From: Negaprion brevirostris
Lineage: Eukaryota
Direction: 5' to 3'
Length of the DNA: 64,000 nt
NCBI GenBank assembly: GCA_030324005.1
Contig: JARDVH010000115.1
Span: 40,793,275 to 40,857,274, forward strand
In this document: in pieces, positions 12,215-47,050 of the stretch
Layout: every line of letters begins with the position of its first letter
Numbering within the stretch: position 1 is the first letter of the stretch
Made by a program: the position numbers and the translations under genes
Notes under the pieces: model-generated
Seen by the model: the letters and a program-made list of their open reading frames with translations, nothing else
Databases searched by the model: none
Told to the model about the DNA's origin: nothing

Positions 12215-12660
12215 GCAGTAAGAAGTCTCACAACACCAGGTTAAAGTCCAACAGGTTTATTTGGTAGCAAACACTACTAGCTTTCGGGGCTCTGCCCCTT
12301 CTTCAGGTGAGTGAGGAGTTCTGATCACAAACAGGGCATATCAAGGCACACATTCAGTTTACAGAATACTGATTAGAATGTGAGTCTTCACAGCTAATCA
12401 AGTCTTAAAGGTGCAGATGATGTGAGTGGAGATAGCATTAAGCATAAGTTAAAGAGATGTGTATTGTCCCCAGACCTTAAACTGTGTGTATCCCTTTATA
12501 TTGCCCTGTTTGTGATCAGAACTCCCCACTCAACTCACGAAGGGGCAGAGCCTCAAAAGCTAGTGGTGTTTGCTACCAAATAAACCTGTTGGATTTTAAC
12601 TGGTACTGTGAGACTTCTTATTGTGTTTACCCCAGTCCAATACCGGCATCTCCACATCAC
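12215..12660. mobile_element. Penelope-like element with inverted terminal-repeat arrangement
   Basis: 12217-12340 is an inverted match to 12500-12622. Same family as 38886. It interrupts a LINE-end repeat, with ttgaactgc on both sides. Confidence 0.75.
12275..12311 (-). ncRNA. Minimal hammerhead ribozyme motif
   Basis: Minus strand reads CUCAC-CUGAAGA-A-GGGGC(AGA)GCCCC-GAAA-GCUA-GUA; stem I is weakened. Confidence 0.62.
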
Positions 12661-19000: not shown

Positions 19001-19962
19001 CGTTTCGTATAACCCTATTGTAGATAGTGATTAGTTTGCTGTTGCTCTGTAATATTTTTGTGAAATAAATGACTTGTGGGAGCTGATAAATGTCATGTTG
19101 AAATTGTGGATTGAGAAGAATTTTCCCTGCAAGGAACAACTTAGCAAATATTTTGCAGCTACCAATTCCAAAATGATTTGACTAGTCCAAAAGCCATTGT
19201 GAAAGATATAATGAATTTCCACTGATATAACACCTTTTGCTTGCTTGGGCATCCCAAATATTTCAAAGCCAATGAAAAACAGTAACTTTTATGAAAATGT
19301 GTGGCAGTCAATGTATACACAGCACGATCCCACAAACACTGAGATGAGCAATCTAATCAATTTTGGTAGTGCTGGTTCAGGGATAGAAATTGATCGGGAC
19401 CAAAGGAGAACTCATCCAACCCACACACACCGCTCCATTCCTTGAATAATGCCACAAGAAATTTTACATTCCTGAAGAAACAGACAAAGCTTCTCATCTG
19501 AAAAGTAGCACCTCAGGCAGTGCATGGCCGACAGTACTGCACTTTAAATTCGGTTGGATTATGTGTTCATGTCTGTGCAATGGGACTTCAACCCTCAGCC
19601 ATCTGGCTCAGAGGTGATGCAACTTGTGAACTGAAGCTAACCCTGAAATATTTGCTCCCCTCTCAATTCTGATCTTGTACAGTTACATTCAGTGCAAGAT
19701 TGCTACTTAATGTATTATCTGCAAAGGGGATATTACAATATATCTTCACTGCTTTGAAATTCAGTGATTTTCAAATGCTAGGATAGCTTTGGTTGAAATA
19801 ATACTAAGAATGGAAACTTCACAATCCTGGTTAACTTGTAGGGAAATATCTTTAACCCCCTTGTATCTTTAAATTATGATTTTAACAGGCTGACAAATTT
19901 GACATAGACTTAGGAATGAATGATATAAGAGATTAATAGTAATTAATTAAATTATATTTCAG

Positions 19963-20035
19963 TGATGAAGCTGAAAAAATTCGAATTGGGAAAACTGTGG
20001 ATGCCTGGATCACTGTCATTAGCCAGGATATACAG
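19963..20035 (+). CDS. KIAA0586: TALPID3 coding exon (73 nt, phase 2 to 0): DEAEKIRIGKTVDAWITVISQDIQ
   Basis: tttcAG acceptor and CAG|GTATGT donor. The peptide resembles human TALPID3 as recalled ([21 protein letters not shown]). Confidence 0.88.
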
Positions 20036-25120: not shown

Positions 25121-27836
25121 ACATGAGCAATTTCATCCACTTTATGCTTAGCTTCAATTTTTGGCATGCCTTCTTGCTTAGTGGAGAGCATAATTAATTT
25201 TGTATGACTTGGAGAAGTTTGACGATTTTTCTAACCATCTAATTCAACTTTGCCATGAGTTGGCTTTTGACTTTCAATGTAGTCCCATCAGGACCCTGTA
25301 ATTTGAGGGTTACAATGTAATCTGAACCATTTAATTTTGTCTGATAGAATAGAAATACCTGCTCCTGTGTCTGGTGGACATTTTTCATGTGGTTCATTAT
25401 GGTTCAGGTGCATTGTGGTAATGTTATGACATTTCTATAAATAGAGCATGCTACCACTTGAATGAGGTCTGATGTAATTCATTTGGGATTTGTAGTCCTT
25501 AAGCTTACACGCACACCCCATGCCCCTTCCTCCTCCCTCTCCCCCCAGACTTCATAGGAATACCCCAGGCTAGGACTATGTCTCATGGAATCAGGCATGT
25601 GCAGGGCCAGGGCCTTTTGTGAGCCATGCACAAGAAGTGCCTTTCACATGCTCATCTGTTGCAACGCCCTAGCATTGTCAGTACTACATGCGGATATTTG
25701 CCTTCAGTTGTCCAGGTGAGCTGATCTGCATCTCCACCCACCCCTGATAACCCAACTCTCATGCAGCATCTCAAGGTCTCCATCATGAAGCTCTGCATAG
25801 TTGAGAGCAACCACGATTTATTTGAACCATTGTAACTTTCCATTTCCAGTCCAAAACATTTGCCTTCCCATCCCCTTATAACCTACAGCCCCCACACACC
25901 CATCATCAATGAACCCTCCCCCCCAGGTGTAACATTTGACCTTTCCAGTTACCCTTCAATACAGGNNNNNNNNNNNNNNNNNNNNNNNNNNNNNNNNNNN
26001 NNNNNNNNNNNNNNNNNNNNNNNNNNNNNNNNNNNNNNNNNNNNNNNNNNNNNNNNNNNNNNNNNNNNNNNNNNATGTTGAGTCATTATTTCTGTCAGTG
26101 GCCAGTATGAAGCCATTTGCATCACGCTAATGGGATGCAGATGAAGACCTGACCAGAATTGTCTCCCTTTTTCCAATTATCTGCACCACCCATGAGATAT
26201 CAGTCCAATCGGAACATGTCTGGACCAATATGTGCACCTATTGGTACTTATTGTAAGAGCGCCTGGGATATCTTGTGGCAATCAGACGATGGAGTCCTCC
26301 CGTGACCGTGGACCCTGGAACGTCAGGTGTAGCGGTGCATGGATGGAGCATCAACCACATGGATCTTTTTGCTGCAGTAGCTTCTAGAGCGAGATGGATA
26401 TTTTCACTGCAGGTGGATGGCAACATGGGGTACTGTTGAGTAACAATGGTCTGTGCTGGGTGGGGAAGAAACAGGAAAGTGAGGAATGAAATGGGTGTGC
26501 AGGCTTTGAGGGGGGGGCAGAGGAGATTGGGAATGGTAGGGGAAAGTGAGAGATGCTATAGTGATCCATTATGGTGCAGTTGTGATGGATATGAGGTGGC
26601 AGTATGCTGCTGTGAACAGCATGGGAAGTTATGGAGATCTGACTAGGCATGAGGGGTGAGCAGGTATGGTCGGATATGGTGGGTGTGCAGATGTGATGAG
26701 CACGGGTGGGCAAGAGAGGGAAGGGGTTCAGAGGGAGGAATCCATCGTGTCAACTGATGAATCATGGAGGGCATACTGAGGGAATTGTTGACAGGAAGGG
26801 ATGATCAAAATTAAAGGGTCAATGGAAACCAGCAGGGTGGGAGGGTTAGTCTTTGGTAATAGCAGCTGAAGGGGCACTGGGGAGATTTGGAAGTAAAAGC
26901 AGATTCTGAGGATCGGCAGATTGAAGGAGAGGCATGGGGGTGGGGGGAAGGTAGAGGACATGGACGTTCACCTGTATTGAAGGGTAACTGGAAATATCAA
27001 ATGTTACACCTGGGGGGGGAGGGTTCATTGATGATGGGTGTGTGAGGGTTGCAGGTCATATGGGGAGGGGGAGGCAAATGTTTTGGACTGGAAGTGGAAG
27101 GTTACGATGGTTCAAATGAACCATGGCTGCTCTCAACTATGCAGAGCTTCATGGTGGAGATCTTGAGATACAGCATGGGAGTTGGTTTATCAGGAATAGG
27201 TGGAGATGCAGGTCAGCTCACCTGGACAACTGAAGGGGAATATCAACGTGTAGTACTGAATGCTGGGGTGTTGCAACAGATGAGCATGTGAAAGGCACTT
27301 CTTGTGCATGGCTTACAAGGGCTGTGGCAAGTACTTTGCCTCTCTGCACATGCATGATTCCATGAGACATAAACCNNNNNNNNNNAGCCTGGGGTATCCC
27401 TATGAAGTTGTGGGAGGGGAGGAGGAAGAGGCGTGGGGTGTGCGTGCAACCTTAAGGACTACAGATTGCAAGTGAATCACATCAGACCTCATTCAAGTGT
27501 TATTGTGTTCTATTTATAGAAGTGTCATAATATTAACAATCATAATGCACCTGTGGAACCACATGAAAAATGTCCATTAGACACAGAAGCAGGTGTTTCT
27601 ATTTTATCAGACAAAATCAAATGGCTCAGACAGATTATATTGTAATCCTCAGATTATAGAGTCCTAGTGGCATTATACTGAAAGTCAAAGGCCAACTCAT
27701 GGCAAAGTTAAATTAGATGGCTAGAGAAATCATCAAACCTCTCCAAGTCATACAAAATCAATTATGCTCTCCACTAGGCAGGAAGGCATGCCAAAAATTG
27801 AAGCTAACCCATAAAAGTGGATGAAGTTGCTCATGT
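25121..27836. repeat. Long inverted duplication: arms ~25121-25965 and ~26970-27836 with a ~1-kb spacer
   Basis: The arms align in reverse complement over ~850 bp (e.g. acatgagcaatttcatccac / gtggatgaagttgctcatgt). Mirrored ORFs 25652-25843(-) and 27049-27291(+) give near-identical peptides. Confidence 0.9.
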
Positions 27837-30365: not shown

Positions 30366-32337
30366 AAACTCCATACCCATGTCACTGCTTCCTCATAACT
30401 TTCTCTGGCTGAAGCAAATCAATTACAACCTCAGCATTCTGTTTGACTCCGAGTTGAAATTCTAACCCCATGTTCTTGTCACCGCAAAGACTGCCTGCTC
30501 ATACTTCAGTAATGTCCCTTATCTCTGCCCCTAATGTAGCCTATCTGATGCTGACACTGTTATTAATGCAATTGTCACTTCCAGAGTATAGCATTGCTCT
30601 CCTGGCTAGCCTCCAATCCTTCACCTGCCATAAACCTGAGGACATCCAAATTTCTGCTGCTTGGATTCTAATTTGCACCAAGTCCTAATCTGTCGTCTTG
30701 TAAAGACAATAAATTTGAAATACTTTTTCAGATCTAAGTAGAGCCTCTATTTGGAATTAAAGAGTCTAATTTTGATCTTTTAAAATTAATTGACAGCTAA
30801 AAGAGCATTGTTAGCCCATGACTCAGCACTGCAATATCATCTCGCTGTGTCCAAAACAGTAGCTGCTTCTTGTCATCCTTGCCAAGGAAATTGTTACGAT
30901 TACAACTACTCATTTGTACAGAAACATGATGTCAAGTCACTTGAATGTAATCTCTTGAGTATTCAAATGTTCCCATGTACTTGTATTTAAAGTTAGATCT
31001 TTTGAAAATTCACTTGTGGAAATAACTTTATATTCCATCATTCATTTTGATTGTATTTATGAACTTTAGAGATTTCGGACCCAAGTGCTGTTGCTTAATG
31101 CTGCTACTAATCAGTACACAGCAAGGATTTTACAAGCTACTGTTCCATTGTGCATTGGTTGTTAGCAAGGCGATGCTTCTCTAGCTGTGTTTGGGTAATA
31201 CGTTTTTTTTTAAATGGGGCAGTATTTCAAAATTACCTGCTGGAAAGTAAATTGGAATTTTCTTTTATTCTTTCATGAGGTGAGTGTCATTGGCTTGGCC
31301 AGCATTTATTCACCATTAATTGCCCTTGAGTAGGTGGTGGTGAGCTGTCTTCTTGAACGCCTGCAAGACCAGATAGTGTAGGTACGGTGATGTTAGGAAG
31401 GGAGAATGGATTATCATGCCAGTCGTTGTTCATCGGTGCAGCTCAACCACAACTAGTTACATTATGGATGTTCTTGTGCTATTGATTGGAGGTATAAAGT
31501 TATCCTTCAATATGATTCTGAGTAGTGAAGACTGCTATTGGCGCTTGTGACGTTGCACTTCTGGATGCCAGTTTTTGGTCTACATCTGTCAAACAGCATT
31601 AAATCATAATCAGAAATGGGGGAAGTTAGCTTAGTTGGCTAGACAGCTACTGTGTAGTTCAGAGTAACACCAGCATAGATTCCCATAATGGCTGAAATAG
31701 ACTTGGAAACCTGCCTCCTTGCCTTGCCTTGCCACGTAGTAAAATTGTGGCATATGCTGTGGTTCACTGACCCTCGAATAATCTAGGATGCTATCTAGAG
31801 AAGTAAGGGTGAGTGGTACAAAAGTAGGAAGAAGGATTGACAGTGTCAGTAAGTACGTATTTTAATTGAATTTGGATTTCTTTTTAAATTTATCCATATT
31901 TGATTTTTCCATTCTATTGAATGGAGACATTCATACAAAAGAGGAAATGTCCTTCACATATCCTGACAGTAACACTATTGAACAAATGCGATCATTTTAA
32001 CACTTACAAGTAGAAAATTGTACAGACTGATCTACCTTGATAATCCAGGATTCATCAAGATTATGAATCCTGATAATTCATACAATTTACTTCAAGGCTC
32101 CTATTGACTTCTCCATTAGATCCAAATGCACCAACAGTTGATGTCCTGTGAGCATGGAAAGCGTAATTGTGTAACTTTGTGTGTATTTAAAACATCTTTG
32201 CATCAAGCCCATGTCAAAGAATAGGCCAACAGTTCACTGCAGCACTATGGGAGTACTGCATTGTCAGCAGTATTGTCTTTTGGATTGTGACATGAAACTG
32301 AGGTTCCTGCTGTCTGTTCAGCTGGACGTAAAAGAAC

Positions 32338-32651
32338 AATAAGAAGTCTCACAACAGAAAGTCTAACAAGTTTATTTGGTAGCACAAGCCACAAGCTTTC
32401 AGAGCGCTGCTCCTTCATCAGGTGAGTGGGAGTTGTGTTCACAAACAGGCATATATATAATGGTCGAAATGTGAGTCTTTACAGATAATCAAGTCTTAAA
32501 GGTACAGACAGTGTGAGTGGAGAGAGTGTTAGGCACAGGTTAAAGAGATGTGCATTGTCTCCAGCCAGGACAGCTAGTGAGAATTTGCAAGACCAGGCAA
32601 GTCGTGGGGGTTACAGATAGTGCGACATGAACCCAAGATCCCTGTTGAGAC
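32338..32651 (-). mobile_element. Penelope-like element 3' terminal repeat, cut by an N gap
   Basis: Aligns by eye to 38890-39230 with scattered substitutions and two deletions. Confidence 0.8.
32390..32426 (-). ncRNA. Minimal hammerhead ribozyme motif
   Basis: Minus strand reads CUCAC-CUGAUGA-A-GGAGC(AGC)GCUCU-GAAA-GCUU-GUG. Confidence 0.7.
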
Positions 32652-33399
32652 NNNNNNNNNNNNNNNNNNNNNNNNNNNNNNNNNNNNNNNNNNNNNNNNN
32701 NNNNNNNNNNNNNNNNNNNNNNNNNNNNNNNNNNNNNNNNNNNNNNNNNNNGAACAATGTTAGAGGCTAGGAATTCTGTGTCAAGATCTGACCTCTTTTC
32801 TCTCTAAAGTCTCTCAAACATCTACAAGGCACAAGTCAGGATTGTGATGGAATACTCTCCTTTTGCCTGGATGAGTGCAGCTCTAACAAGACTCAAGAAG
32901 CTCAACACTCATCCATGGCTCTATTATTTCTGGCAAGGTAAACATTTGTTACTGGTCCCTAATTGTCTTTGGTAAATTGGTGACAAAACGTTCCTGAATC
33001 ATTGCAGTCCATGTGATGTTGGTGCACCCACAATGCTGGTGAGGGGGGGCGTTCTAAGAATACCATTCAACAATAGTGAAAGAACGGTGACAACATTTCA
33101 AATCCGAGGTAGTCAGCGGCAGAGTTGTAATTCACAGGTCCAGGCTAATGCTCTTACATGAGTTCAAATTCTCCCAGAGAAGGTAATAGAACTTAATTAA
33201 TTAATTTGGAATTACCATAATAGTGACCACAAACTATTGCTATCGTTGTAAAAACGCATCTAGTTCATTAATATCCATTTTAGGGAAGGAAATCCGCTGT
33301 TTTTACTTGGCATGGCTCCATGTGACTCCAAACCCAGAGCAATATGGCTGAAACTTAAAATGCCCTCTGAAATGGCTTTGCGATGACTCAGTGTATCAA

Positions 33400-35570
33400 A
33401 CTGCTACAGAAAAGTTAAAAAGGAATGAAACCGATGGATTACAGCATGACATAAACACCAGAAAAGACAGTGGTGCACACAGCCCTGTCACTCTGTCCTC
33501 CTTACCAATATCTAAGGGTTTGTACCGAAATTGAGAGACCTGTTCCACAGATAAATCAAGCAACGGTCTGATATAGTCATACTCACTGATTTATTTTTTA
33601 AAATGTTGCAGACATGCCATTACCATCCCTGAGTATCACCACCAGACCTGACACCTCAGTGGTATATAGTCAAGAGGGAATTGTCCTCAGAGCTTTCAAC
33701 ATTGAATCCCAATTCCATGAAGTCTCATGGTATCAGGTCAAATGTGAGCAAGGAAACTTCCTCCTGTTGCTGCCCCTTAGCTGATGAATCAGTACTGCAC
33801 TGTGCTGAAAACTGAATAGAAGAAGCACTATAAGTGGCAAACACATAAATTGTACTCTGGCAGATGATTTCAATGTTCATCAGCAAGACTAGTTTGGCAG
33901 TACCATTACTGACCAGCTGGCTGAGTTCTGAGAGGCATAGCTACTAGACTCGTCCGGCAACAGGTGGTGAGAGAACAGCTGCTTGGAGGAGCATGAGACA
34001 TACCTAAAAATGAGGTGTCAGCCTGGTGAAGCTACAAATACAGCATCACTTGCATGCCACCATTGGAAGCAGCATGCCACAAATAGAGCGAAGCAATTCC
34101 ATAGCTAATAGATCAGATCTAAGCTCTGTAGTCCTGCCACAGTTGTAACTGGTGGATAATTAAACAACTAGCGAATAAGGTTCCAGAGACACTCCCACCA
34201 TCAATGACTGGGGAGTCCAGAACATTAGTGCAAAAGAGAAGACGGAAACATTTAGAACCATCTTCAACTAGAAGTGCAATGTGGATGATCTATCATGGCT
34301 TCCTCGTTTGATTCCCAGCATCACAAATGCCGGTTTTCAGCCAATTTAATTCATAGTCATACAGCATAGAAACAGGGTCTTCAGCTGACCATGTCTATGC
34401 CGATCATCAAATACCAATCCATACCAATTCCATTTACCAGCACTTGGTCCATAGTCTACTATAGCTTGGCGATTTAAGCACTCATCCAGATGCTTCTTAA
34501 ATGTTGTGGGACACCACCCTCTCAGGCAACATGTTCCATATTTCCATCACCCTCTGGGTGAAAAAATCTTTTCTCAGATCCCCTCTAAACCACTTACTTC
34601 TCACCTTATACCTATGCCCTCTGGTCTTAAGACATCTTGAGCATGGGGGAAGTTTATCATCTATCCTTATCTATACCTCTCATTATTTTCTATATCTCAA
34701 TCAGATCCCCCCTCAGCCTCTGCTGCTCGAGGGAAAACAAACCCAGCCTATCTGGTCTCACCTCATAGCTGAACCATTCCATCCCAGGCACCATCCTGGT
34801 GAATCTGCTCTACACCCTCTCCAGCGTAATCATGTCCTTCCGACAGTGTGGTGCCCAGAACTATGCCTTAACCAATGTTTTATAAAGCTATAGCAAAACC
34901 TTCCTGCTGCTATATTCTATGCCCCAGCTAATGAACGCAAGCATTCTAAATGCCTTCTTCACCACATTATCTACCTGTGCTGCCACTATCAGGGATCTAT
35001 GGACTTATACACCAAGGTCCTTTTGTTCCTCAACATTCCTGAGGGGCCTACCGTTCATTGTGTATATACTACTTTTATTAGAGCTCCATGCCACATGATA
35101 TCAAGAAATGGCTGAAAACTATGGACCATGACAATATTCTGACAGTAGTACTGAAGAAATGTGCTCCAGAACTAGCCGCAGTCCTAGCCAAGCTGTTCCA
35201 GTACAGCTACAACATTGGCATTTATGTGGCAATGTAGAAAATTGCCAAGGTATGTCCTATCCAAAAAGAACTGGACAAATCCAATGTGACCAATTACCAC
35301 CCTATCAGCCTACTCTCAATCAATACTGTTATCAAGCAGCACTTAGATGGTAATACGTGCTCTCTGACAGGCAGTTTAGGTTCTGCCAGGGTTATTCCAT
35401 TCTACCTCATTACAGCATTGGCTCAAACATGAACAAAAGACCTGAACTCAAGAGGTGAGGTGAGAGTGACTGCTCTGGACATCATGGCAGTATTTGACTG
35501 AGTATGGCATCAAGGAATCTGAGCAAAATTGGAGTTAATAGGAATCAGGGGAAAGCTCTCCACTGCCAAG
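33400..35570 (+). mobile_element. Same CR1-group LINE (endonuclease to RT) with a nested antisense CR1 fragment at 34355-35085
   Basis: APE-like DDFNVH motif and RT-start sequence shared with 14075-14550. Confidence 0.65.
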
Positions 35571-37619
35571 TAAGGTGGTGGAGGCAGGCATGCTGGACTT
35601 GTTTAAGGTGTACTTAGATAGATGCATGAGTGAAATAGGGATGGAGGGATAGAGGAGACTGTTTTAAATAAGGATCAGAGCTTCAGGACGTTCCTGGAAA
35701 TCAACTGTTACATGTGTTGATGTTTTTCTCTTTTACTCCACAGGTGCATCAGTCCACCTTGTTGTCTAACAAGGGGCATACACGCGGTGGGTCATGCGTG
35801 GGCTGCTCTTGGATGTTTCGAGAGTAGCTTAGTACTTCACGTCGTTTGTGTATGCTTAAACTGAACCAGCAGATGGGCACCACGACAGCTCAGTGACTAT
35901 CACTGTTTGCTGTGCAGGTACATGGATTTGGGCCAGTATCTGTGGGAGTTTGCACATTCTCCCCGTGCTTGCGTGGGCCTCCCACACCCCAAAGATGTGC
36001 TCTTAGGCTGATTGGTGTCACAAATTGTCCCTAAATTAGTCTCCCCTTAATGTGGTTTCCAATGTAGAGTGCCATAAGCGTAGACAAAGGTCATGCGTGG
36101 AAGAGGGAACTCACAATGTTAAAATGGCGGCACAGGCTCGTTGGGCTGAAGGGCCTGTTTCCCATTCTGTGTTGTTCTTTGTTCTTATAACTCTCAGTCC
36201 CATTAAATCCCATGTACTCATCCAGAAGTTTCTTAAAAGACCCCAGAGTTCGCCTCTACCACCACCAAATTGGAAATACTCACCAACAAATCATCCACTG
36301 GTTTCCCTGTGATGTCTCTTAGAAGTGAACGCACAATTTCACTGTCACTGTGTCCCTGAGTCCCTCTTGTTTTCTTTTGCTTCTTTAATCATGCTCTGTC
36401 ATTGAAGTCTCACACTCACTCTCATTCCATTAAGCCTCCCTCACCGAGTCTCAGAAAGCTCACTCCTTTAACCCCTGCTGGAGTGGAAGTGAGTGTTAGG
36501 ACATTGATGCACATTACCTTACAGAGCCCATATTTGTTGGCAGTCCCTGAGGTGGGAGTGTTGCGGAGGAAGAGAGGGATGCAGAGGTGGAGTTTTTTTT
36601 ACCGTCAAATCCACACAATGTTGACATGTTGCCTCAGTCATTTTACTGCCAGTGGAATATTTTAGTGCTTCTTTTTAAGCGGTCCACTTTGAATGAGCCT
36701 AGTTTCTTGTAATGCAGAGATCTCTACTTTTTTCCTTCTTGATCGTGCATGCATCATCAACCTGCATGTTGACAAGGGTTTCCTATTGCTAAACTTAAAC
36801 CAAATACAGAGATTCATGAAATTCAGATTTTAAGACGTGACTTTGTTAACCAAAAGGAGAATGATATAAAGTAGCTCAACACCCCAGGTAGAGAATACGG
36901 ACAGCCCAATATCACTGTGAAGAACAATGCCTCAATACATTTTCAAAATCATTTTTCCCACCTTTCCGATAGGCATGATCCAATAAACATTAATACAAAT
37001 CAGTCAATAATCAGCTCTGTCACCATCTTCAACCAGTAACAATTTACATTCTGGGCTCATGGGATCTTATTTGTCCTTAATTTTAGATGTACCTTCCTGT
37101 GTTGCCCAGCAACACACTGGACTGTGAAATGGGAAAATGATTCCCGCAGACTTAAACCCATGTGACACGAGTCCAACTGTGAGAAAATCCTTACGTCTGC
37201 CTTGCACCTGCATTATCAGTTTTGAGCTATATAGTTCTATTCATCAAACTGACGTTGGTAGCCATTTTGTTCCTGACAACTGCTGATAAAGTAGCTGCAT
37301 ACAGTAAAACCATTGTCCCTCGGAATGCAGGCTCCATCTACTAACTCATCCCATCAAACCCTGCTCTATCTTGCTGTTGGCTGAAGTTTCACAAAATGAA
37401 TTCTAAAAGCAAACTGCATTCATTTTATAAATTCAAAATACATGTTTTAAATGAAGAATACTTGTTACTAGCTGTCTTTTATAATGACAGGTTTTGGCAG
37501 CGCTGTCCATTTTCTAAGATCATTCACTCTTCAATCAGTATTGTGTTAATGTTTTCTAACCAAGATTATGTGTTTTCTTTAGCCTAATTTAGCACCCCTA
37601 CATCACTGCAGAAGGTTTT

Positions 37620-38180
37620 TTTTATTTATTCATGGGACATGGGTGTCACTGGCTGGCCACCATTTATTGCCCATTCCAAGTTGCCCTTGAGAAGGTGTTG
37701 GTGAGCTGCCTTCTTGAATCGCTGCAGTCCTTGTTCTGTGGGTTAACCCACAATGCTGTGAGGGAGGGAATTACAGGATTTTGACCCAGCGAAGGAATGG
37801 CAGCGATATATTTCCAAGTCAGGGTGGTGAGGGGTTTGGAGGGGAACTTGTGGTGTTCTCATGTTCTGCTGCCCTAGACCTTCTGGATGGAAGTGGTCAT
37901 GGTTTGGAAAGTGCTGTTGAAGGATTTTTGGTGAACTGCTGCAGTGCATCTTGTAGATAGTACACATTGCTATACTTTGCGTCAGTGGTGAAGGGATTGA
38001 ATGTTTGTAGATATGGTGCAGGCTGCTTTGTCTGCATGGTGTCAAGTTTTTTGAGTTTTGTTGGAGCTCACTCATCCAGGCCAGTGGGGAATATTCCATC
38101 ACACTTCTGACTTGTGCCTTGTAGATGGTGGATAGGCTGTGGGGAGTCAAGAGTTACTCGACAGCCTCTGACCTGTTCAG
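37620..38180 (-). mobile_element. Same CR1-group LINE, 3' end
   Basis: ORF 37743-38150: LSTIYKAQVRSVMEYSPLAWMS. Confidence 0.75.
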
Positions 38181-38655
38181 GTTTTTTAGTTTTTTACTCT
38201 ATGTTCTGCTGATCCACCCTCCAACTACTTCCTGGAGACTAGGCCACAAAACCCCGAGGCAAGTTAGTACTCAGTATTCTGCTCCCTGGAGCAGTCAGAG
38301 ACCGCAAAGTTAAATCTTATGCTTACGTTACTGGAGACACATCTTCTCTAGAATAACTGTGATAATCATTTATGCTGGTGTCATTGTATTATCGATATCC
38401 TCTGATAGCAAGTATATTTTCATTGTTGAGAACACTCATGTGATTTATCCTGCATCAATATTTTATATATGATCAATTTTATATGTAACAAAGTTGAGGA
38501 AATTGGCTGTAATGCCTGCTGTAAATTTTGGTGTCCCTCAGACTGTCTGGAAACAGTTCCATTTTCCTGTGTTTGGTATAGGTGAATGAGAACTAAGGTT
38601 TATTGAAGCCAAAGAATATATCTATTTAAATTTTAAATTTCCTTTATCTCCCCAG

Positions 38656-38757
38656 GTGACATTCAGATTGGAATGGTAGATCGGAAAGGGCAGCTGGAAG
38701 TTGAAGTAATTCGAGCCCGAGGCCTCAATCAAAAAACAGGTTCTAAATCACTCCCAG
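38656..38757 (+). CDS. Isolated RIMS-family (RIM) C2B-domain exon (102 nt, phase 1 to 1): GDIQIGMVDRKGQLEVEVIRARGLNQKTGSKSLP
   Basis: Pyrimidine tract plus cccAG acceptor and CAG|GTAAAT donor. The peptide is close to the recalled RIM1/2/3 C2B start (GDIQIGMEDKKGQLEVEVIRAR...PGSKS.P). The paralogue cannot be assigned, and no flanking RIMS exons were found in the window. Confidence 0.88.
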
Positions 38758-38885
38758 GTAAATAACCAGTTTGACCTTTGTGATGCTGTAGATGTTGAAA
38801 GGCTAAACACAAATGCAGTGATGTACACGTTAACCATGTTCTTGAAATCTAGTGGGTGGGGAGGGGGAGGGTTTCTTCATGAAAA

Positions 38886-39513
38886 CACAGTAAGAAGTCT
38901 CACAACACCAGGTGAAAGTCCAACAGTTTAATTTGGTAGCAAAAGCCACTAGCTTTCAGCGCACTGCTCCTTCATCAGGTAAGTGGGAGTTCTGTTCACA
39001 AACAGGGTATATATAGACACAAACTCAATTTACAAAATAATGGTCGGAATGCGAGTCTTTACAGGTAATCAAGTCTTAAAGGTACAGACAATGCGAGTGG
39101 AGAAAGCGTTAAACACAGGTTAAAGAGATGTGTATTGTCTCCAGACAGGACAGTTAGTGAGATGTTGCAAGTCCAGGCAAGTCGCGAGGGTTACAGATAG
39201 TGTGACATGAACCCAAGATCCCGGTTGAGGCCGTCCTCATGTCTGCGGAACTTGGCTATCAGTTTCTGCTCAGGGATTCTGCGTTGTCATGTGTCGTGAA
39301 GGCCACCTTGGAGAACACTTACCCGAAGTTCAGAGGCCGAATGCCCGTGACTGCTGAAGCGTTCCCAACAAGAGAAGAACACTCCTGCCTGGTGATTGTT
39401 GAGTGGTGTTCATTCATTCGTTGTAGTAGCGTCTGCATAGTCTCCCCAATGTACCATGTCGCGGGATATTCTTTCCTGCAGCTTATCAGGTGGACAACTG
39501 ATTTGGCTCCACA
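38886..39513 (-). mobile_element. 5'-truncated Penelope-like element: GIY-YIG C-terminus plus 3' terminal repeat with hammerhead motif
   Basis: The minus strand encodes ...HSASELRVSVLQGGLHDT*QRRIPEQKLIAKFRRHEDGLNRDLGFMSHYL*, typical of the end of a PLE GIY-YIG domain. The terminal sequence is shared with copies at 12217, 32338, 44190 and 63927. Confidence 0.8.
38947..38983 (-). ncRNA. Minimal hammerhead ribozyme motif (one stem II mismatch)
   Basis: Minus strand reads CUUAC-CUGAUGA-A-GGAGC(AGU)GCGCU-GAAA-GCUA-GUG. Confidence 0.62.
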
Positions 39514-39780
39514 GACGTAAAAGAACCCATGGTGTTATTTAAAGAAAATTGGAGTTTTGGTGTCCTTGCCAACTTTTAATCCAACACAACCAGAATAGAT
39601 GATCTGGTCATTTATCTCATTCCTGTCTGTGGGATGTAACACAGGACAAGATGGCTGCCGTCTTTCCCTTCATTAGAATGATGTTTACACTTCAAAGAAT
39701 TGCCTTGTCTGGAAGGAAATTTGAAACATTCTGAGATGGTGATAGCTATTGCATGAACACAAGTTTGGTTTTTCTAACTG
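39514..39780 (+). mobile_element. 3' half of an old Deu-domain-like SINE whose 5' half is at ~32200-32337
   Basis: gacgtaaaagaacccatgg...gatctggtcatttatctcatt...aagatggctgccg resembles the DeuSINE/SacSINE core. Related degenerate copies lie at 19250-19640(-), 44770-45230 and 55800-55990. Confidence 0.55.
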
Positions 39781-42700
39781 GCAGTGTTTCACCTCAGTTG
39801 TTATACTTCAAAAATCTTTTCACTTCAAGGGAATGGGGGACAGCCTCAGTGTATGGAAATTCACTTTGAACAAACGGAGGTTCAGCAGTATATTTTAGTT
39901 CTCTTTCTGCTTCATTTCACAACTGAAAACAAAGGCAGGTGTAGTGTGTTAACTGGGGGGCAGACTTTGTTCTCTGGCTTTTTGGACATAAAGGGAGAGA
40001 GGGTGGGTTGGGGTGTGGGTTCTCATTAAGACAAAGGGCTGCAGCTGCTGTGATCAGGAAAAACGGCTGAGAGTTCTCTGCGAGCTACCAGGCAGATTTA
40101 GTGTATTTGCCATAGTGCAACTTGGAGGAGAAATTGCCAGAATGCATTGCTGGTGGTTTGGATATCTCCAAAACCTGAGGAAAGCACCATTATTTTCAGG
40201 TGTGAACATTTTGCACCTTAATCCCAATAAGACTTAACCTGGAGTCCCTTATTCCCATGGTAACCAAGGCACTGAAGCTTATCAACACAGCAGATTGCCT
40301 GAAGGATACCTGAGTGAATCCTGCTCTGTTCTATGCAGGGAAGAAATCCAGAAAACAAGATAAAATCCATTCTATCAATTATGTTTTTGAAATATATTTC
40401 AAAAAGGTTCAGATTGACAGTGTATACAGAACTGTACAGATTTAGTTGCAGTATGCAATCCTTTAACAGATTGATCTGAACAGCTGCTGTTATGGTTGCC
40501 ATGGAGGAGATTTATTCTCCTAAATTTGCACTGCTTTGCTAGACTGCTGAAATTTGTAAAAGGCGCAGAATTAAGAAGCAATGTGGCATATTTCCATCCT
40601 TCTGTCCCAGCAGCCCCTGTAGGAGTATAACTTTGAATGATTAATGTCACATTCCCAGGCAGTGTAATAGATTCAGCGATTTTATGTGTGGGTCTAGGAG
40701 ATTGTATTCAGCACAACCTATTAAGAAAGTATTATTATTTTAAGACAGATCAATGGATGCAAATCTAATGCATGTAGGTTTGAGCTATTGTTAATGCAAT
40801 CTTTTCATGTGATGGGGGACAAAGCATCTATCATCTGGGCAAAAGGTTTAAGATTGCAAAGATTAAGGTTTTATGGAATTAAGGTGAGAATAACACACTG
40901 GATTGGTGAAAATGAAAAAGCAAGAGTTAGAATTAAGGATAACTTTTCAGAGTGACTTGGTAGTGTTCAGTTTCTGGGGCCACCTGTGTTCAAATAAAAA
41001 TCAATTAATAGAATAGACTGTAGCCTGGTGGTGTGAAAATTTTCAATTGATACCAGAAAAAGTTTGACTTAATTCTTTAGAAGATTGAAGGAAGTTGTTA
41101 TGCTAAGACATCGATTAGGGTTTGGAAAGCAGAAGAAATTTAATGATTATAAATGAGTTGATTCATTTGGTTAAAAAAAATTAACAGCAGTAATTATACT
41201 CTGAATGGAAATAAACTTGGTATGCAGTATTACCACGTTGAGACAGTACTGAAATTCCTGTATCTTTTCCCTTACTGTTCATAATAATAAGTGTTTTTGA
41301 AAAGGGAATTTTGTGTGTTTCTCAACCTTTGAGTGTGTTCACTTTTTAAACAATTAGCAGCAAGCTTTTGTGGAGTTTAATTAAGAAGGATTATTTATTC
41401 ACACATTCACCCTGAAAGTCTCAATATCATGTCACTCACGTGCATGTATACATGTACATAGACACACACACACACGTGTACACATACTCGAGAAAGATAC
41501 AGTTCAAGAGGGTAGTGCATTTTTACAAGTTCTAAACAAAGGAATAGTTCATTGTCCACATGTTTGGCAAAGCAGTCATTGTGAATCTGTTGAAGAATAT
41601 CGTTCATTCCGAAAATGTAGTCTGCCTGGTTGCTGTAGCTGGGTGGTACATCAACATTGTTGCAGCATTCCCTCGAGGGGATGGCTTTTTCAGCACATCA
41701 CAAAATTGGTGACTTGTGGTTTATTTTAACCAATAGGCCAAGTTTCTGTTCTAGTAAACTCTGAAGAGAAATGGCTGGAGAGACCTCTAAGATGTCATAT
41801 CTCCAGGTTGGTTTGCAGTTGGTGTTCTGTAGTTGGTATTCTTTGCAGACAGCCCAGGCTCTCTGCTTCTTGGGCTAATACATTTGTTAACTGCACTCAG
41901 TTTCAGAAACATGGTGCACGTTTCAGTGCCTTCCTTTGTTCCCATACTGGATTGGAGCCAGGGTGATTGATACACAATGATGAAATGCTTGATAATCCAT
42001 TGACATTCCAGCCATGATTTGCTCACTGGAAGACATATTGGATCGCTTTCATTGAGTTGGTAAGGATGGTCACTTTGCGCCTGTTAAACCCATTTGCATT
42101 TGAGAACTTTCCAGGGGCATTTTCACACTGGAGTTAATCCTTTATGCAAAAGTCACCTGATCCTTGGCAGCCATCTTAGTGTTCTGTTTCATGTCCATTT
42201 TTAAAAGAAAGACAGTTCCAGAAAATTATGTATCTTTTTTACATAGAGGGCGGTGAATGTCTGGAATGCACTGCCCGGGGAGGTGATGGGAGCAGGTAAG
42301 ATAGCGGCATTTAGATGAATAGGATGGGAATGAAAGGATGCAGACTCTGTAAGTGCATATGGTTTTAGTTTAGGCAGGCATTATGATCGACGCAGACTTG
42401 GAGGTCTGAAGGGCCTGTTCCTGTGCTGTACTGTTCTCTGTGTTCTCTGAATGTGGTCTGTGTTTATAAATAGGACATATCTTCACTGGGCAAGGCAGAT
42501 TATTTCAAAGGACATTAAAGGCAACACCACAAGTTGATGTGACTACAGTAAAAGTAATTATGGAATTTTAGGTTTTACCGTGATATGTACAATATAAAAG
42601 TCGAGAGGTAATGATGAGCTGATTTAGAAGCTTAGGACCTCAATTAGAGTACCATATACAGTGATCTGCACCTTTCTAGAAGAAGCACATTGAAGGTTTT

Positions 42701-43079
42701 GAAAGGCTGCAACACAGATTCATTAGGAGGGTATCTGGTATGAGAAGATACAAATAAGGAAAAACACTTGGAAAAATCATATAAAATAGTTCAAACATTA
42801 TAGTTTACTGTGATTTACCTTTTTTTTAAAGAGGCATATTCCTATACTCTAGTTATCAGAAATATTCAGGGTAGTCCCAAAATCTTTTTTGAAAGCATGA
42901 CTTTTATTGTTTAAATTTGGTGCTTGATAATTATTGAACATTCACACTAGAGTATTTAAACACTCTTGCACAGCAGCATTGCTTTGTTAGAGATAAGACT
43001 GAAATTATGAATGGCTATGTTTGTGTTTTATGTCCTAACACTTTATCTCTTATCCATAAATAAACAATTTCCTACGTAG

Positions 43080-43352
43080 AATGAAACTGCAAAGAAGAAT
43101 TTTCTTCAAAAAGTTTCATCAAAGCAAGAAGAACAGGAGCTGAGTATTATGAGGAAAGGAGGTGATGTCAAGGCTATCAAATTTGACAAAGATGTGAAGG
43201 ATAAAAGCCAAAATAAACCAGAATTAACAACAAAGAGGTCCTTGAGTATAGCAAGAAATCTGCCACAGCAGTTAAAGGAGCCTTGTGGAAGTAAAAACCT
43301 GAGAAGCAAGGCTGTCGTACAGTCATCACAACAGAAGGAGCCGAGGCCAAAG
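43080..43352 (+). CDS. KIAA0586: TALPID3 coding exon (273 nt, phase 0 to 0): NETAKKNFLQKVSS...QQKEPRPK
   Basis: cgtAG acceptor and an open Lys/Gln-rich frame overlapping ORF 43149-43409. Phase 0 fits both neighbouring exons, and it occupies the position of the poorly conserved linker. The donor is AAG|GTGAAG, or alternatively AAG|GTTACA after 43358. Confidence 0.75.
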
Positions 43353-43897
43353 GTGAAGGTTACAACTATTATGAGTCATTGTCATTCAATTTTGCATTTC
43401 TTATGTTAAGAAAATTAAATTCAATGATCCAGTTTAATGATACGTTTTTATAAAAACACAGCGTGAAAATAATGTCATACTAAATATGAGTGCCTTGTCA
43501 TGATTCGTTTTATAATACTTTCAAGACGTCGTTAAGAAAGTACCAAATATATACATTATACAACAGTGAAAAATATAATTTTAACTGAATTATTTTGGAA
43601 AGCTCTTGTTTTAAATTTCCAATTCCTGGTTACTGTTGCATGGTTCCACAAACACCAATATCACCTAATTAATTATTGTGCCTCGGGAGTTGGGCAAGAT
43701 TTTCAACCCAGGTGGGGGTGAATACAGAGGTAAGTGTGCATGCACAGAAGTTCATGCCACTGGTTGGCATGCTGATTTGCCAGCACTAACCTGCCACAGG
43801 GCCATGTTCCTTGAGGCAGAGTTGGGATTGGGAGGGCAGCCCATCTGTAGACAATGGAGCCAATTAAGCTGGTTAAATGGCCTTAAGGCCTATTGAT

Positions 43898-44193
43898 GAT
43901 GTGGGTATGCCGTGACTTGCCTGGGTTTGCAAAACCTCACTTACTGTACTGTCTGGAGACAATACACATCTCTGTAGCCTGTGATCNNNNNNNNNNNNNN
44001 NNNNNNNNNNNNNNNNNNNNNNNNNNNNNNNNNNNNNNNNNNNNNNNNNNNNNNNNNNNNNNNNNNNNNNNNNNNNNNNNNNNNNNAGAACTCTCCATTC
44101 ACCTGACGAAGGGGCTAACCCCGAAAGCTTGTGAGTCTATTATCAAATAAATTGGTTGGACTATAACCTGGTGTTGTCAGTCTTTTTACTGTG
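43898..44193 (+). mobile_element. Penelope-like terminal-repeat element with 16-bp target-site duplication
   Basis: cttaaggcctattgat occurs at 43882-43897 and 44194-44209. The interior matches the PLE family in reverse complement and contains an N gap. Confidence 0.78.
44098..44135 (+). ncRNA. Minimal type I hammerhead ribozyme motif (PLE-associated)
   Basis: UUCAC-CUGACGA-A-GGGG(CUAA)CCCC-GAAA-GCUU-GUGAG: conserved core boxes, stem II hairpin, palindromic stem III and a 5-bp stem I. Confidence 0.75.
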
Positions 44194-46099
44194 CTTAAGG
44201 CCTATTGATAGAGGCCAACTTGAATTTTCATCAGGGAATAGGTTAGCTGTCTGGAGGCAGCCCATGGCAGCATTTAGGATGGCTGAAGCTCCAGGCAGGC
44301 TTTGAAGGCCTCATGCTTGCCTGACTACACCTGTAGCTGCAGCTTGCCTTGTACTGATGTACCCACTTCGCAATGACAGCCCAGCTATTGAGGGCATTTT
44401 TCAAATTTAAAAGTTTTAAAATTCGGAGAGGGTTCCTTAGAATGGAGATGCCCCTTCTCTCATCTGAACCAGCGCTTCTGACCTGGAGGGTCTCCCATTG
44501 GTTCTTCAGGTTTGAGAGCCTGCCCCATTCTTAAATGGATAGTGAGCTGACTTCTGGCCAATAATTTTTCAATTTTGGGGACAATCGCTCTCAGGTGACT
44601 CTTTCTCATGCAGTGCTGTGTTTCACTCTATTTGGCCCCAGCGCCAAGGTCTCGACCCAAAACCCAAAATCTTGCCCTTGATGTTGGCAACCTATTTAAT
44701 TATGAGGACCATTACAATTGCACCTAGTGCTGATCTCTCCTGAATCACTGAAGGAATTTCTCATTTAACTCAACCAGATACTTCAGCGCAGTACCAAGGG
44801 AGCGCTGCACATCGACTTTATAAACATCCTATACAGCACCTTTCATATTCTTGGACACATGATACTGTGCCTGTAAGAAATGTATTTTTATCATTTTTTT
44901 TTGTAAGGGGGATGGTTAAAATTCAGCTCTGTTTAATACAGTGCCAATTTGTCTGCACCAGTCAGCTCTCATGCTGAGAATGCAGGCTAATAATTGATTG
45001 TCCTTTGAATGAGACTTTTAACTGACTTGACATTGCCTTCACCCAGCAGTTCTGATGGATATTAAAGATCTCACAGCAGTATTTTTGTAGGACTCATAGC
45101 CTGTTCACCAAACAAAAACAGATTATCTTGATTGTTCATTGCATTGATGTGAGATTTGCTGTGCCATATCATTACTAAGTTTGCATAAATCACTGTACTT
45201 CAAAACAATTCACTGAAATGCTTGATGAAAGGCTTTTTAGAATCATAAAATCCCTACAGTACAGAAGGAGGCCATTCAGCCCATGAGTTTGCACTGATCA
45301 CAACCCTACCCATCCCCATAACTCCACGTATTTACCCTGCTAGTCCCCCTGACATTAAGGGGCAATTTACCATGGCCAATCAACCTAACCTGCACATCTT
45401 TGGACTTAAATACTCACAAATACCTTTTCCGATGAATCCTAACCCTTTGGGACAGAGACACTGTGATCAACTGTAGACTTCTACTTACTGTCAGCTGAAT
45501 TTAGCTGGATAAGTACTGGTCGTGTACCCAACCTTGGTTTAACTTAATACTGGGCATTACTGCCGAAGGCTTCAATGAAATGTTCCTATTCATATTTTAC
45601 ATTATTGAATAAGATTTTAAATTGATCCACTGCAGAAGTGAATCATAGATTTACACTTACAGATAAAAATTGGGGACATTCATCTCTGCCACTTACATTG
45701 GCAGACAGATAAAGTTTTCAGTTGAAAAATGGACTTTATATTACAAATCTATTAGCACTGATAATGGGAGTAAAAAATTGGTGATTTAAAAATAAGGCTA
45801 GGAATTCAAATGCTTATATTTCACAGAAATATAAAGAAGTGAAAAAAATCTTTGTCTTTCACTCTATTCACCTGCTGCTGCTATTACCGCTTATAGCTAT
45901 TCCTACCAGGAGATCTGCTGTCATGTTATGTCATGCGTGTCTGTTTTGTGCTACCTTCACCCTTCCATTGTTGCTTCTCTGCAACTGCACTTTGATTTTT
46001 ATCATCCAGCTACACCTAGGTCGAACCCTTTTATTGCTGCTTTTGCCTTTGCCCTCCGGAAGGCATTTCTAGATTTTCAGCTCTGACCAAGTGGCCTAG

Positions 46100-47050
46100 C
46101 TATTGATGTTTTCCTTTCTGTTTGTCACCTTTCAGAGTTCCATTTGCTCTTAATTTTTCTGTATATGGAATTTTAAGCATACATCTCAGTATCCACATTT
46201 CAAAATCTCCTATTTTCTTTATCTATTGTCCAGGTTTCTGAAGCATACAGAAAAGTGGATTGAATGTAGCATCTAACGCGTTTTTTTCCTTGTTTCTAGC
46301 TTGAGTTTTCTTGTTCTTAATACATCTTTCATCTTCACAAAATTAGTCTGGCTAGCTCTAACCTCATTTCTGCATCACATCTGCCTACTTCTGTTCTTTT
46401 TGTCCTAAAAAGTCAGATTTATCTTCTTGTTCCAGTGTGACACCATTCACTTAAATTTTCACTCTAGTTTATTCTAATGTATTCCTTCTAACTACCATTG
46501 TTTTTGTCTTTTTGGTGTTCATATTTAATCAATTTTCTAAACTTACAGATGTTGCTTAATCTATGNNNNNNNNNNNNNNNNNNNNNNNNNNNNNNNNNNN
46601 NNNNNNNNNNNNNNNNNNNNNNNNNNNNNNNNNNNNNNNNNNNNNNNNNNNNNNNNNNNNNNNNNGATGTTGCTTAATCTATGATATTTTGTTGGGCCTC
46701 TTCGATTCTGCAAGGAGCACTGTGTCATCAGTATAGCACAAGTTTGTTACGTTCTTGTCTCCCATTGTTACTCTGGAAGTACATCTAATTCTCTGAAAAT
46801 TTGTTCTGTGTACAGATTGAATAATTTTGGCAACAGTATACAGCCTTGTCATACTCCTCTCTTCACTTGAAGCATATCTGATCGTCCTTCTTCTTGCCAG
46901 ATGCTTGTTCTTTGATTCCAATATAGACTCTGGATTAAATCCCAAACTTTACTGTCAGTGTCACATTTGAGCGACACTCCTATTAGCTTTTGGTGATGAA
47001 CACTCTTCCATCTTAAATGAAGCAACTCTATTACCTATGGGCCTTATTCT
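46100..47050 (-). mobile_element. RTE-clade LINE fragment
   Basis: VTNLCYTDDTVLLAES resembles the RTE RT motif NLRYADDTVLLAES. Confidence 0.65.

Follow-up and report, generated by a model that had tools for sequence, protein, structure and literature searches.

A RIMS1-like exon inside a shark TALPID3 intron is very probably an assembly mis-join through two old Penelope-like repeats

Among Penelope-like elements (PLEs), the right precedent for host DNA lying between two copies of such a repeat comes from a rotifer, in which, according to the available text of PMC3846280, an NRPS gene was copied, introns included; the copy lies between Pen3a pseudo-LTRs, an 8-bp duplication goes with it, and the empty allele was verified. 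The accessible part of PMC8557442 describes pseudo-LTRs, hammerheads and 5' truncation in PLEs, and adds that complex PLE insertions trouble short-read assemblies. Terminons, as they are presented in the excerpts of PMC6431247 and PMC8557442, have no endonuclease and attach at telomeres, and telomeric repeats lie beside their ribozyme (available text of PMC6431247).

Here, we analyzed a window of 64,000 nucleotides from the assembly of the shark Negaprion brevirostris, in which a RIMS1-like exon lies in a TALPID3 intron, within a block bounded by two Penelope-like repeats (Table 1). All the coordinates given in an earlier, sequence-only reading of this window hold, i.e. those of the two 13-mers, of the 100-N run (32652-32751) and of the N-free stretch 32752-43986, and so does its description of an intact, spliceable RIMS exon between TALPID3 exons, with AG/GT ends, a C2B match and no N up to position 43080. 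A segment of a RIMS1-like intron was very probably mis-joined into the TALPID3 intron by the draft assembly, via two old Penelope-like copies. This explanation appears the most likely one because the exon is single-copy, its own gene on scaffold C25 is without it, and a fitting N run lies there. The host TALPID3 intron is of phase 0, given that the upstream exon stops on a codon boundary. In the whole window, searched on both strands, the 13-mer occurs at two sites only, and the left edge of the block sits within a repeat family different from the Penelope-like one.

Table 1 Features of the TALPID3 intron in the window, and exons displaced elsewhere in the assembly
Feature	Position	Strand	Remarks
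TALPID3 exon upstream of block	19961..20035	+	aa 617-641 of P0122
5' half of old SINE-like repeat into which the insertion went (TALPID3 intron)	32254..32337	+	in-register alignment with L087 and L081
13-bp target-site duplication, left copy	32325..32337	+	
Penelope-like 3' end (pseudo-LTR)	32338..32651	-	candidate hammerhead core 32385-32429
100-N assembly gap	32652..32751	no strand	sole link between left repeat and block
6,134-bp block	32752..38885	+	repeats and unique DNA
RIMS1-like C2B exon, intact, phase 1-1	38656..38757	+	first 33-34 residues of C2B domain
Penelope-like element, 5'-truncated: pseudo-LTR and decayed GIY-YIG-like frame	38886..39498	-	candidate hammerhead core 38942-38986
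13-bp target-site duplication, right copy	39514..39526	+	
3' half of interrupted SINE-like repeat; TALPID3 intron resumes	39527..39735	+	
TALPID3 exon downstream of block	43080..43352	+	begins at aa 642 of P0122
Displaced exon, TALPID3 aa 541-618	on C193		home N run 7,356
Displaced exon, RIMS1-like aa 826-882	on C143		home N runs 8,674, 1,592, 4,211
Displaced exon, C146 paralogue (assigned by elimination)	on C157		home N runs 5,712, 5,178, 3,122

The peptide encoded by the 102-nt exon matches PDB RIMS1 chains (E = 9e-11), where it corresponds to the start of the RIMS C2B domain, and its best matches among longer proteins are shark 'RIMS1-like' proteins. All 33 of 33 residues are identical to those of another shark (P0002), and 30-32 of 33 are identical in the 12 other cartilaginous-fish proteins compared. 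The exon, with phase 1 on both sides, fits the gene on C25; read in the phase-0 TALPID3 intron, it gives a stop at codon 8. Drift of the exon to the extent of the repeat ends (5.3-7.4%) would be expected to leave ~3.9-5.5 replacement changes, whereas none is observed against P0002 (p = 0.004-0.02 for zero replacements), an amino-acid argument that is powerless if the event was very recent (p = 0.35 at 1.4% divergence). In the relative X6, 2 of the 39 listed differences fall inside the exon, both of them synonymous, which is a weak effect among the differences listed (Fisher p = 0.07).

A shark RIMS1-like C-terminal protein (P0003) maps to C25:104,873,385-104,990,045, with exons 88-99% identical (aa 15-96, 95-142, 142-183, 212-262 and 257-331). 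Among the RIMS1-like matches, aa 180-213 match the window only; thus, the C25 gene is without exactly that exon, one of the two outcomes by which the sequence-only reading would have recognized a misassembly. Between the two C25 exons flanking the missing one, the sequence reads N for 7,187 positions (G000:C25:104,969,459-104,976,645), and the same 19-kb interval contains smaller runs of 100, 100, 10 and 967 N. Against this length, the block measures 6,134 bp, and the block with the right repeat 6,747 bp; the span between the 13-mers (7,176 bp, including 100 N) comes within 11 bp of the run, a near-equality that would likewise agree with a donor in which both repeats were present. Because irregular multi-kb N runs abound in the regions examined (67,858 N among 304,000 bases, the sampling being centred on missing exons), an assembly gap is the plain reading of the 7,187-N run, which we presume it to be; stretches of withheld sequence would likewise appear as N. 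We infer that the block at 32752-38885 is RIMS1-like intron sequence and that its home is this run. Comparison of the block with the flanks of the C25 gap gave only repeat-level matches (64-76% identity for the longer ones) and exact matches of 7-8 bp only, and among the best 40 matches scored there was no unplaced contig overlapping the right flank; no sequence or contig ties the block to either flank.

Three segments of the block (38200-38885, 36270-37610 and 32752-33750) served as queries in DNA searches of the genome, in which the best candidates only were scored; the window was the sole 100% match, and the other matches were shorter, repeat-like stretches of at most 85% identity. When the genome was searched with the exon peptide, three matches were found, i.e. 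the window and paralogues on C59 and C121. All 22 available public runs are assembled contigs, none being raw or long reads. Of these, 8 were examined, and the exon is covered by a single contig in 7 (X7 does not cover it); the 85% contig threshold is loose, such that X6 also drew a piece of a RIMS2-like paralogue. The length-weighted depth of the block relative to the TALPID3 flank was 1.12 in X17, 0.91 in X1 and 0.78 in X18 among the contigs listed, depth being one figure per contig and the contigs listed being the longest ones; X2, at the floor value of 2, was left out of these ratios. X17 shows only 1 difference from the window in 4,873 aligned letters among the contigs listed, and is thus probably conspecific, perhaps even the source sample itself, and X1, X2 and X18 differ from the window by 2-3%. 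The check for transduction suggested by the sequence-only reading, namely doubled depth together with a further copy inside an intact RIMS gene, came out the other way, with a single copy and a depth ratio of 0.78-1.12. Nothing points to two copies of the block, and its depth is undoubled.

On the minus strand, the repeat ends match each other as direct copies (82.5% identity, 343 aligned columns) and thus face the same way, as the sequence-only reading had stated. The family is abundant (11,366 candidates in the genome, of which the best 40 were scored); the other scored copies share the same terminus, and most of them run beyond 39498, indicative of 5' truncation of the right copy, which breaks off short of the reverse transcriptase and in which the family homology stops at ~39498 and is followed by 15 non-family nucleotides before the 13-bp duplication. 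The left repeat (32338-32651) is 7.4% diverged from the family majority and appears to be the copy native to the TALPID3 intron, whereas the right repeat (38886-39498) would be a hybrid, with its left part derived from the RIMS-intron copy and its right part from the TALPID3-intron copy. The right part of this repeat is more diverged than the left part (9.0% vs 5.3%); however, 29 other copies show the same excess in the same comparison (8.6% vs 6.6%), so that the difference carries no signal, and neither divergence nor shared alleles located a switch point in the right repeat when compared with these 29 copies. The left copy can be followed as far as the base matching 39228; past this point, the right repeat stays free of private changes for 30 bp at most, and the two repeat ends have 3 changes in common, of 17 and 23.

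Both copies carry, on the minus strand, the core letters CUGA-N-GA...GAAA...UH, which we take to be the minimal hammerhead pattern. The proposed hammerheads are therefore present as far as the core letters go, but neither copy has a hammerhead match in Rfam and neither adopts a monomeric hammerhead fold (z = 0.55 and 0.03); the motif in each copy is a candidate ribozyme only. In the right copy, a decayed frame of 64 aa weakly resembles GIY-YIG in Pfam (16 bits against a cut-off of 22.6; E = 0.015).

The interrupted repeat outside the 13-mers, presumably a SINE, had been described as a single element formed by the outer sequences, and this is borne out by 2 of the 11 uninterrupted copies, L087 (offset 0) and L081 (offset 7), which align to both halves in register; in the remaining 9 of 11, the left-half alignments are weak or out of register. 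Given these two in-register copies, the 13-mer, which is single in the uninterrupted L087 and L081 and double at the element ends, represents a true target-site duplication. Most simply, this duplication belongs to one ordinary Penelope-like insertion into the SINE. At the visible left edge of the block, no inner duplication of at least 6 bp was found, although the gap may conceal the actual edge.

In 4 of 4 public runs, a contig crosses the junction between the TALPID3 flank and the left repeat, reaching ~50 bp into the latter, and likewise, in 4 of 4, contigs continue beyond the block for ~25 bp of the right repeat; among the contigs listed, 3 of 4 runs show the far end of the right repeat joined to the TALPID3 flank. 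Neither the 100-N run nor the central part of the right repeat (38913-39428) is bridged by a listed contig. The junction between the block and the right repeat is present also in X6 (50 differences in ~740 bp) and X9. More distant relatives provide no overhang past the right end of the block: the repeat is present in X6 and X9, and the contig stops in X22. Because the outer junctions recur in relatives that are 2-3% diverged, the insertions in the TALPID3 intron and in the RIMS intron are both old.

The window exon is one of several displaced exons in this assembly. Mapping of five multi-exon genes yielded at least 69 distinct exon matches (29 for TALPID3, 19 for the RIMS1-like gene, and 12, 5 and 4 for the C59, C121 and C146 paralogues, respectively); these counts are floors because a stricter first look was used in part of the mapping, and they leave out three weak matches (42-48% identity), which probably stem from other C2 proteins, and a duplicate exon that is degraded. 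Four of the 69, including the window exon, lie off the scaffold of their own gene, i.e. 3 of 68 (~4%) besides the window exon (Table 1). The layout around the exon on C143 resembles that in the window, with a different repeat family, and consists of a repeat end, 100 N, a short exon-bearing stretch and a second copy of the family, and the exon on C157 lies within a 3.8-kb piece with a 100-N run at each side. The TALPID3 exon on C193 was considered as a block bounded in a like manner and rejected, the nearby Penelope-like copy being a self-contained fold-back with a 12-bp duplication. The possibility that the 100-N gaps mark overlaps was also discarded, overlapping flanks being found in 2 of 26 only.

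A repeat-induced mis-join in a gapped short-read assembly places a single-copy segment wrongly, beside a gap, and leaves a sized gap at its home, with repeats at the junctions and normal depth. In the present case, the assembly would have reached the TALPID3-intron repeat, broken at 32651 and continued with a contig starting in RIMS1-like intron DNA; this contig would have entered the RIMS-intron repeat at 38886 and left via the TALPID3-intron repeat at 39513, and a gap would have remained on the RIMS1-like scaffold C25. The true TALPID3 intron would then contain one 5'-truncated Penelope-like insertion of ~1.2 kb or shorter (~630 bp if the gap hides nothing more), flanked by the 13-bp duplication, and the true RIMS1-like gene on C25 would contain the exon followed by a separate copy of the same repeat, its own. 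A software step behind the join, either gap-filling or merging, must be assumed. Counting against a mis-join are the lack of N inside the right repeat, the lack of a located switch point and the lack of a link between the block and C25.

Conversely, it is improbable that a 6-kb piece of a synaptic gene truly moved or was copied between chromosomes via Penelope-like repeats, bringing a spliceable, stop-carrying exon into an essential cilia gene. One way in which the block could truly reside in the TALPID3 intron is a recent event of ectopic recombination, or of gene conversion, that involved two old Penelope-like copies in the sequenced animal or its species, either as a copy (with the donor unassembled) or as a move. 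This would agree with the continuity of the right repeat, which runs on without N, with the same-orientation copies of one family (82.5%) at both ends, and with a hybrid repeat, which is the expected leftover; yet a copy is expected to double the depth, and X17 gives 1.12, whereas a move is not expected to leave a multi-kb gap at home, such as is present on C25, and would strip the C2B start from a gene that otherwise matches another shark's in its C-terminal exons (88-99% identity). Recombination, which would place a stop-carrying spliceable exon in TALPID3, is also at odds with the three other exons displaced likewise, and we consider it very unlikely. Transduction appears extremely unlikely: here, an antisense RNA running from one RIMS-intron Penelope copy through 6.1 kb to a second would have been reverse-transcribed into the SINE. 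The direct repeats with candidate hammerhead cores at both ends, the 13-bp duplication around the whole, the closeness of the span (7,176) to the C25 run (7,187) and the rotifer NRPS precedent, in which introns were kept and an 8-bp duplication formed (available text of PMC3846280), are all compatible with such an event, but the junctions are old, recurring in relatives 2-3% diverged, and only one copy is found in the assembly and in 7 of 7 exon-covering runs. After a transduction of that age, donor and copy would be distinguishable and the copy would be decaying, whereas only one is seen, with an exon free of decay; furthermore, the left repeat is joined to the block by N alone, and the block begins in a different repeat. 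Hence, among the three interpretations that the sequence-only reading had offered, i.e. transduction, ectopic recombination and an assembly chimera through the PLE repeat, the chimera fits best and transduction is left unsupported.

Under the mis-join explanation, the composite block is best filed as not a real feature. If it is an artefact, a repeat mis-join can mimic the textbook signs of transduction, even with a true target-site duplication, and, for similar findings in this assembly, the home locus needs to be inspected for the absence of the piece and for an N run. If it is real, Penelope-mediated capture of host DNA would reach beyond rotifers to a vertebrate, with a cargo of 6 kb. A literature search found no paper on Penelope and misassembly in a shark genome. 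Compared with the usual repeat-induced mis-join, the join in the window differs in that it would lie inside the right repeat, without N.

Among the known systems, Terminons, with which the sequence-only reading had compared the locus, are the wrong precedent, and the capture of NRPS by the endonuclease-bearing Pen3a the right one, because Terminons, as described in the available text of PMC6431247 and PMC8557442, are devoid of an endonuclease and attached to telomeres. The likeness to Terminons consists in the candidate hammerhead motif at the 3' end and in the trapping of host genes that can occur between neighbouring elements (excerpts of PMC6431247). Unlike Terminons, as characterized in the same excerpts, the window element is interstitial, at 40.8 Mb on a 78.7-Mb scaffold, and has a putative GIY-YIG-like frame adjoining its terminal repeat; no telomeric repeat was seen by eye beside either 3' end. 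The Pen3a/NRPS case, in the form given in the accessible part of PMC3846280, is similar, as far as the assembled letters of the window go, in that direct pseudo-LTRs enclose host DNA and a short target-site duplication flanks the entire structure; however, its cargo belongs to a gene family as an additional member and an empty site was observed on the other allele, whereas for the window block no second copy was found, the exon is absent from the donor gene, and an N gap forms one junction. The closest correspondence is that of the single insertion with endonuclease-bearing (GIY-YIG) PLEs, as these are described in the available portions of PMC8557442 and PMC3846280: a pseudo-LTR, a candidate hammerhead core, 5' truncation, a putative GIY-YIG-like frame and a short duplication, which at 13 bp is slightly longer than the 8-10 bp of the cases reported there. 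A single Penelope-like insertion with such a duplication is an ordinary event of a known kind.

In the lemon shark assembly that carries the window (N. brevirostris GCA_030324005.1, G000), the TALPID3 exon encoding aa 541–618 is located off the home scaffold of the gene, on C193, and the home interval on C115, i.e. the stretch of the gene's own scaffold where this exon should be, contains a 7,356-N run whose end falls on the window's first base. C193 also carries a fold-back Penelope-like insertion, which consists of a long copy and an inverted terminal piece, with a 12-bp duplication on both sides. A RIMS1-like exon from the C2A region (aa 826–882 of the protein P0005) is likewise off its home scaffold, C25, and resides on C143, preceded by a 100-N gap and flanked on each side by one copy of a single repeat family; the N runs in its home interval on C25 are 8,674, 1,592 and 4,211 long. 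Separately, C25 harbors a degraded duplicate of the RIMS1-like exon for aa 142–179 (63–65% identity); the intact exon follows ~600 bp further downstream.

The RIMS paralogue on C146, a separate gene, is without its first C2B exon, and that exon was not found anywhere in the genome searched. The C2B exon on C157, which lies within a 3.8-kb piece bounded by two 100-N runs, probably belongs to this paralogue.

Exons, Penelope-like sequences and other repeats in the window and on other scaffolds of G000
Feature	Location	Locus label or detail
TALPID3 exon	G000:C193:105,061,618-105,061,851	L067
Fold-back Penelope-like insertion	C193:105,059,894-105,060,679	L066-L067
RIMS1-like C2A-region exon	G000:C143:3,846,899-3,847,069	L070
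Degraded RIMS1-like duplicate	C25:104,964,148-104,964,285	L026
C2B exon	G000:C157:9,628,911-9,629,054	L034
Penelope-like end, head-to-head fold-back	window 12216-12628	12216-12361 vs 12623-12478, 87.8%
Penelope-like end	window 43911-44196	split by 100-N gap
Inverted repeat pair	window 25121-25965 + 26971-27836	~850 bp, 84% identical
Dispersed repeat	window 36784-37610	~820 bp
100-N gap	window 46566-46665	

Within the window, the arms of the inverted repeat pair are separated by a 109-N gap, and one arm contains a 10-N gap. The dispersed repeat has many copies, with 74–80% identity. The sequences flanking the last 100-N gap in the table overlap by 18 bp and, thus, this gap conceals no sequence.
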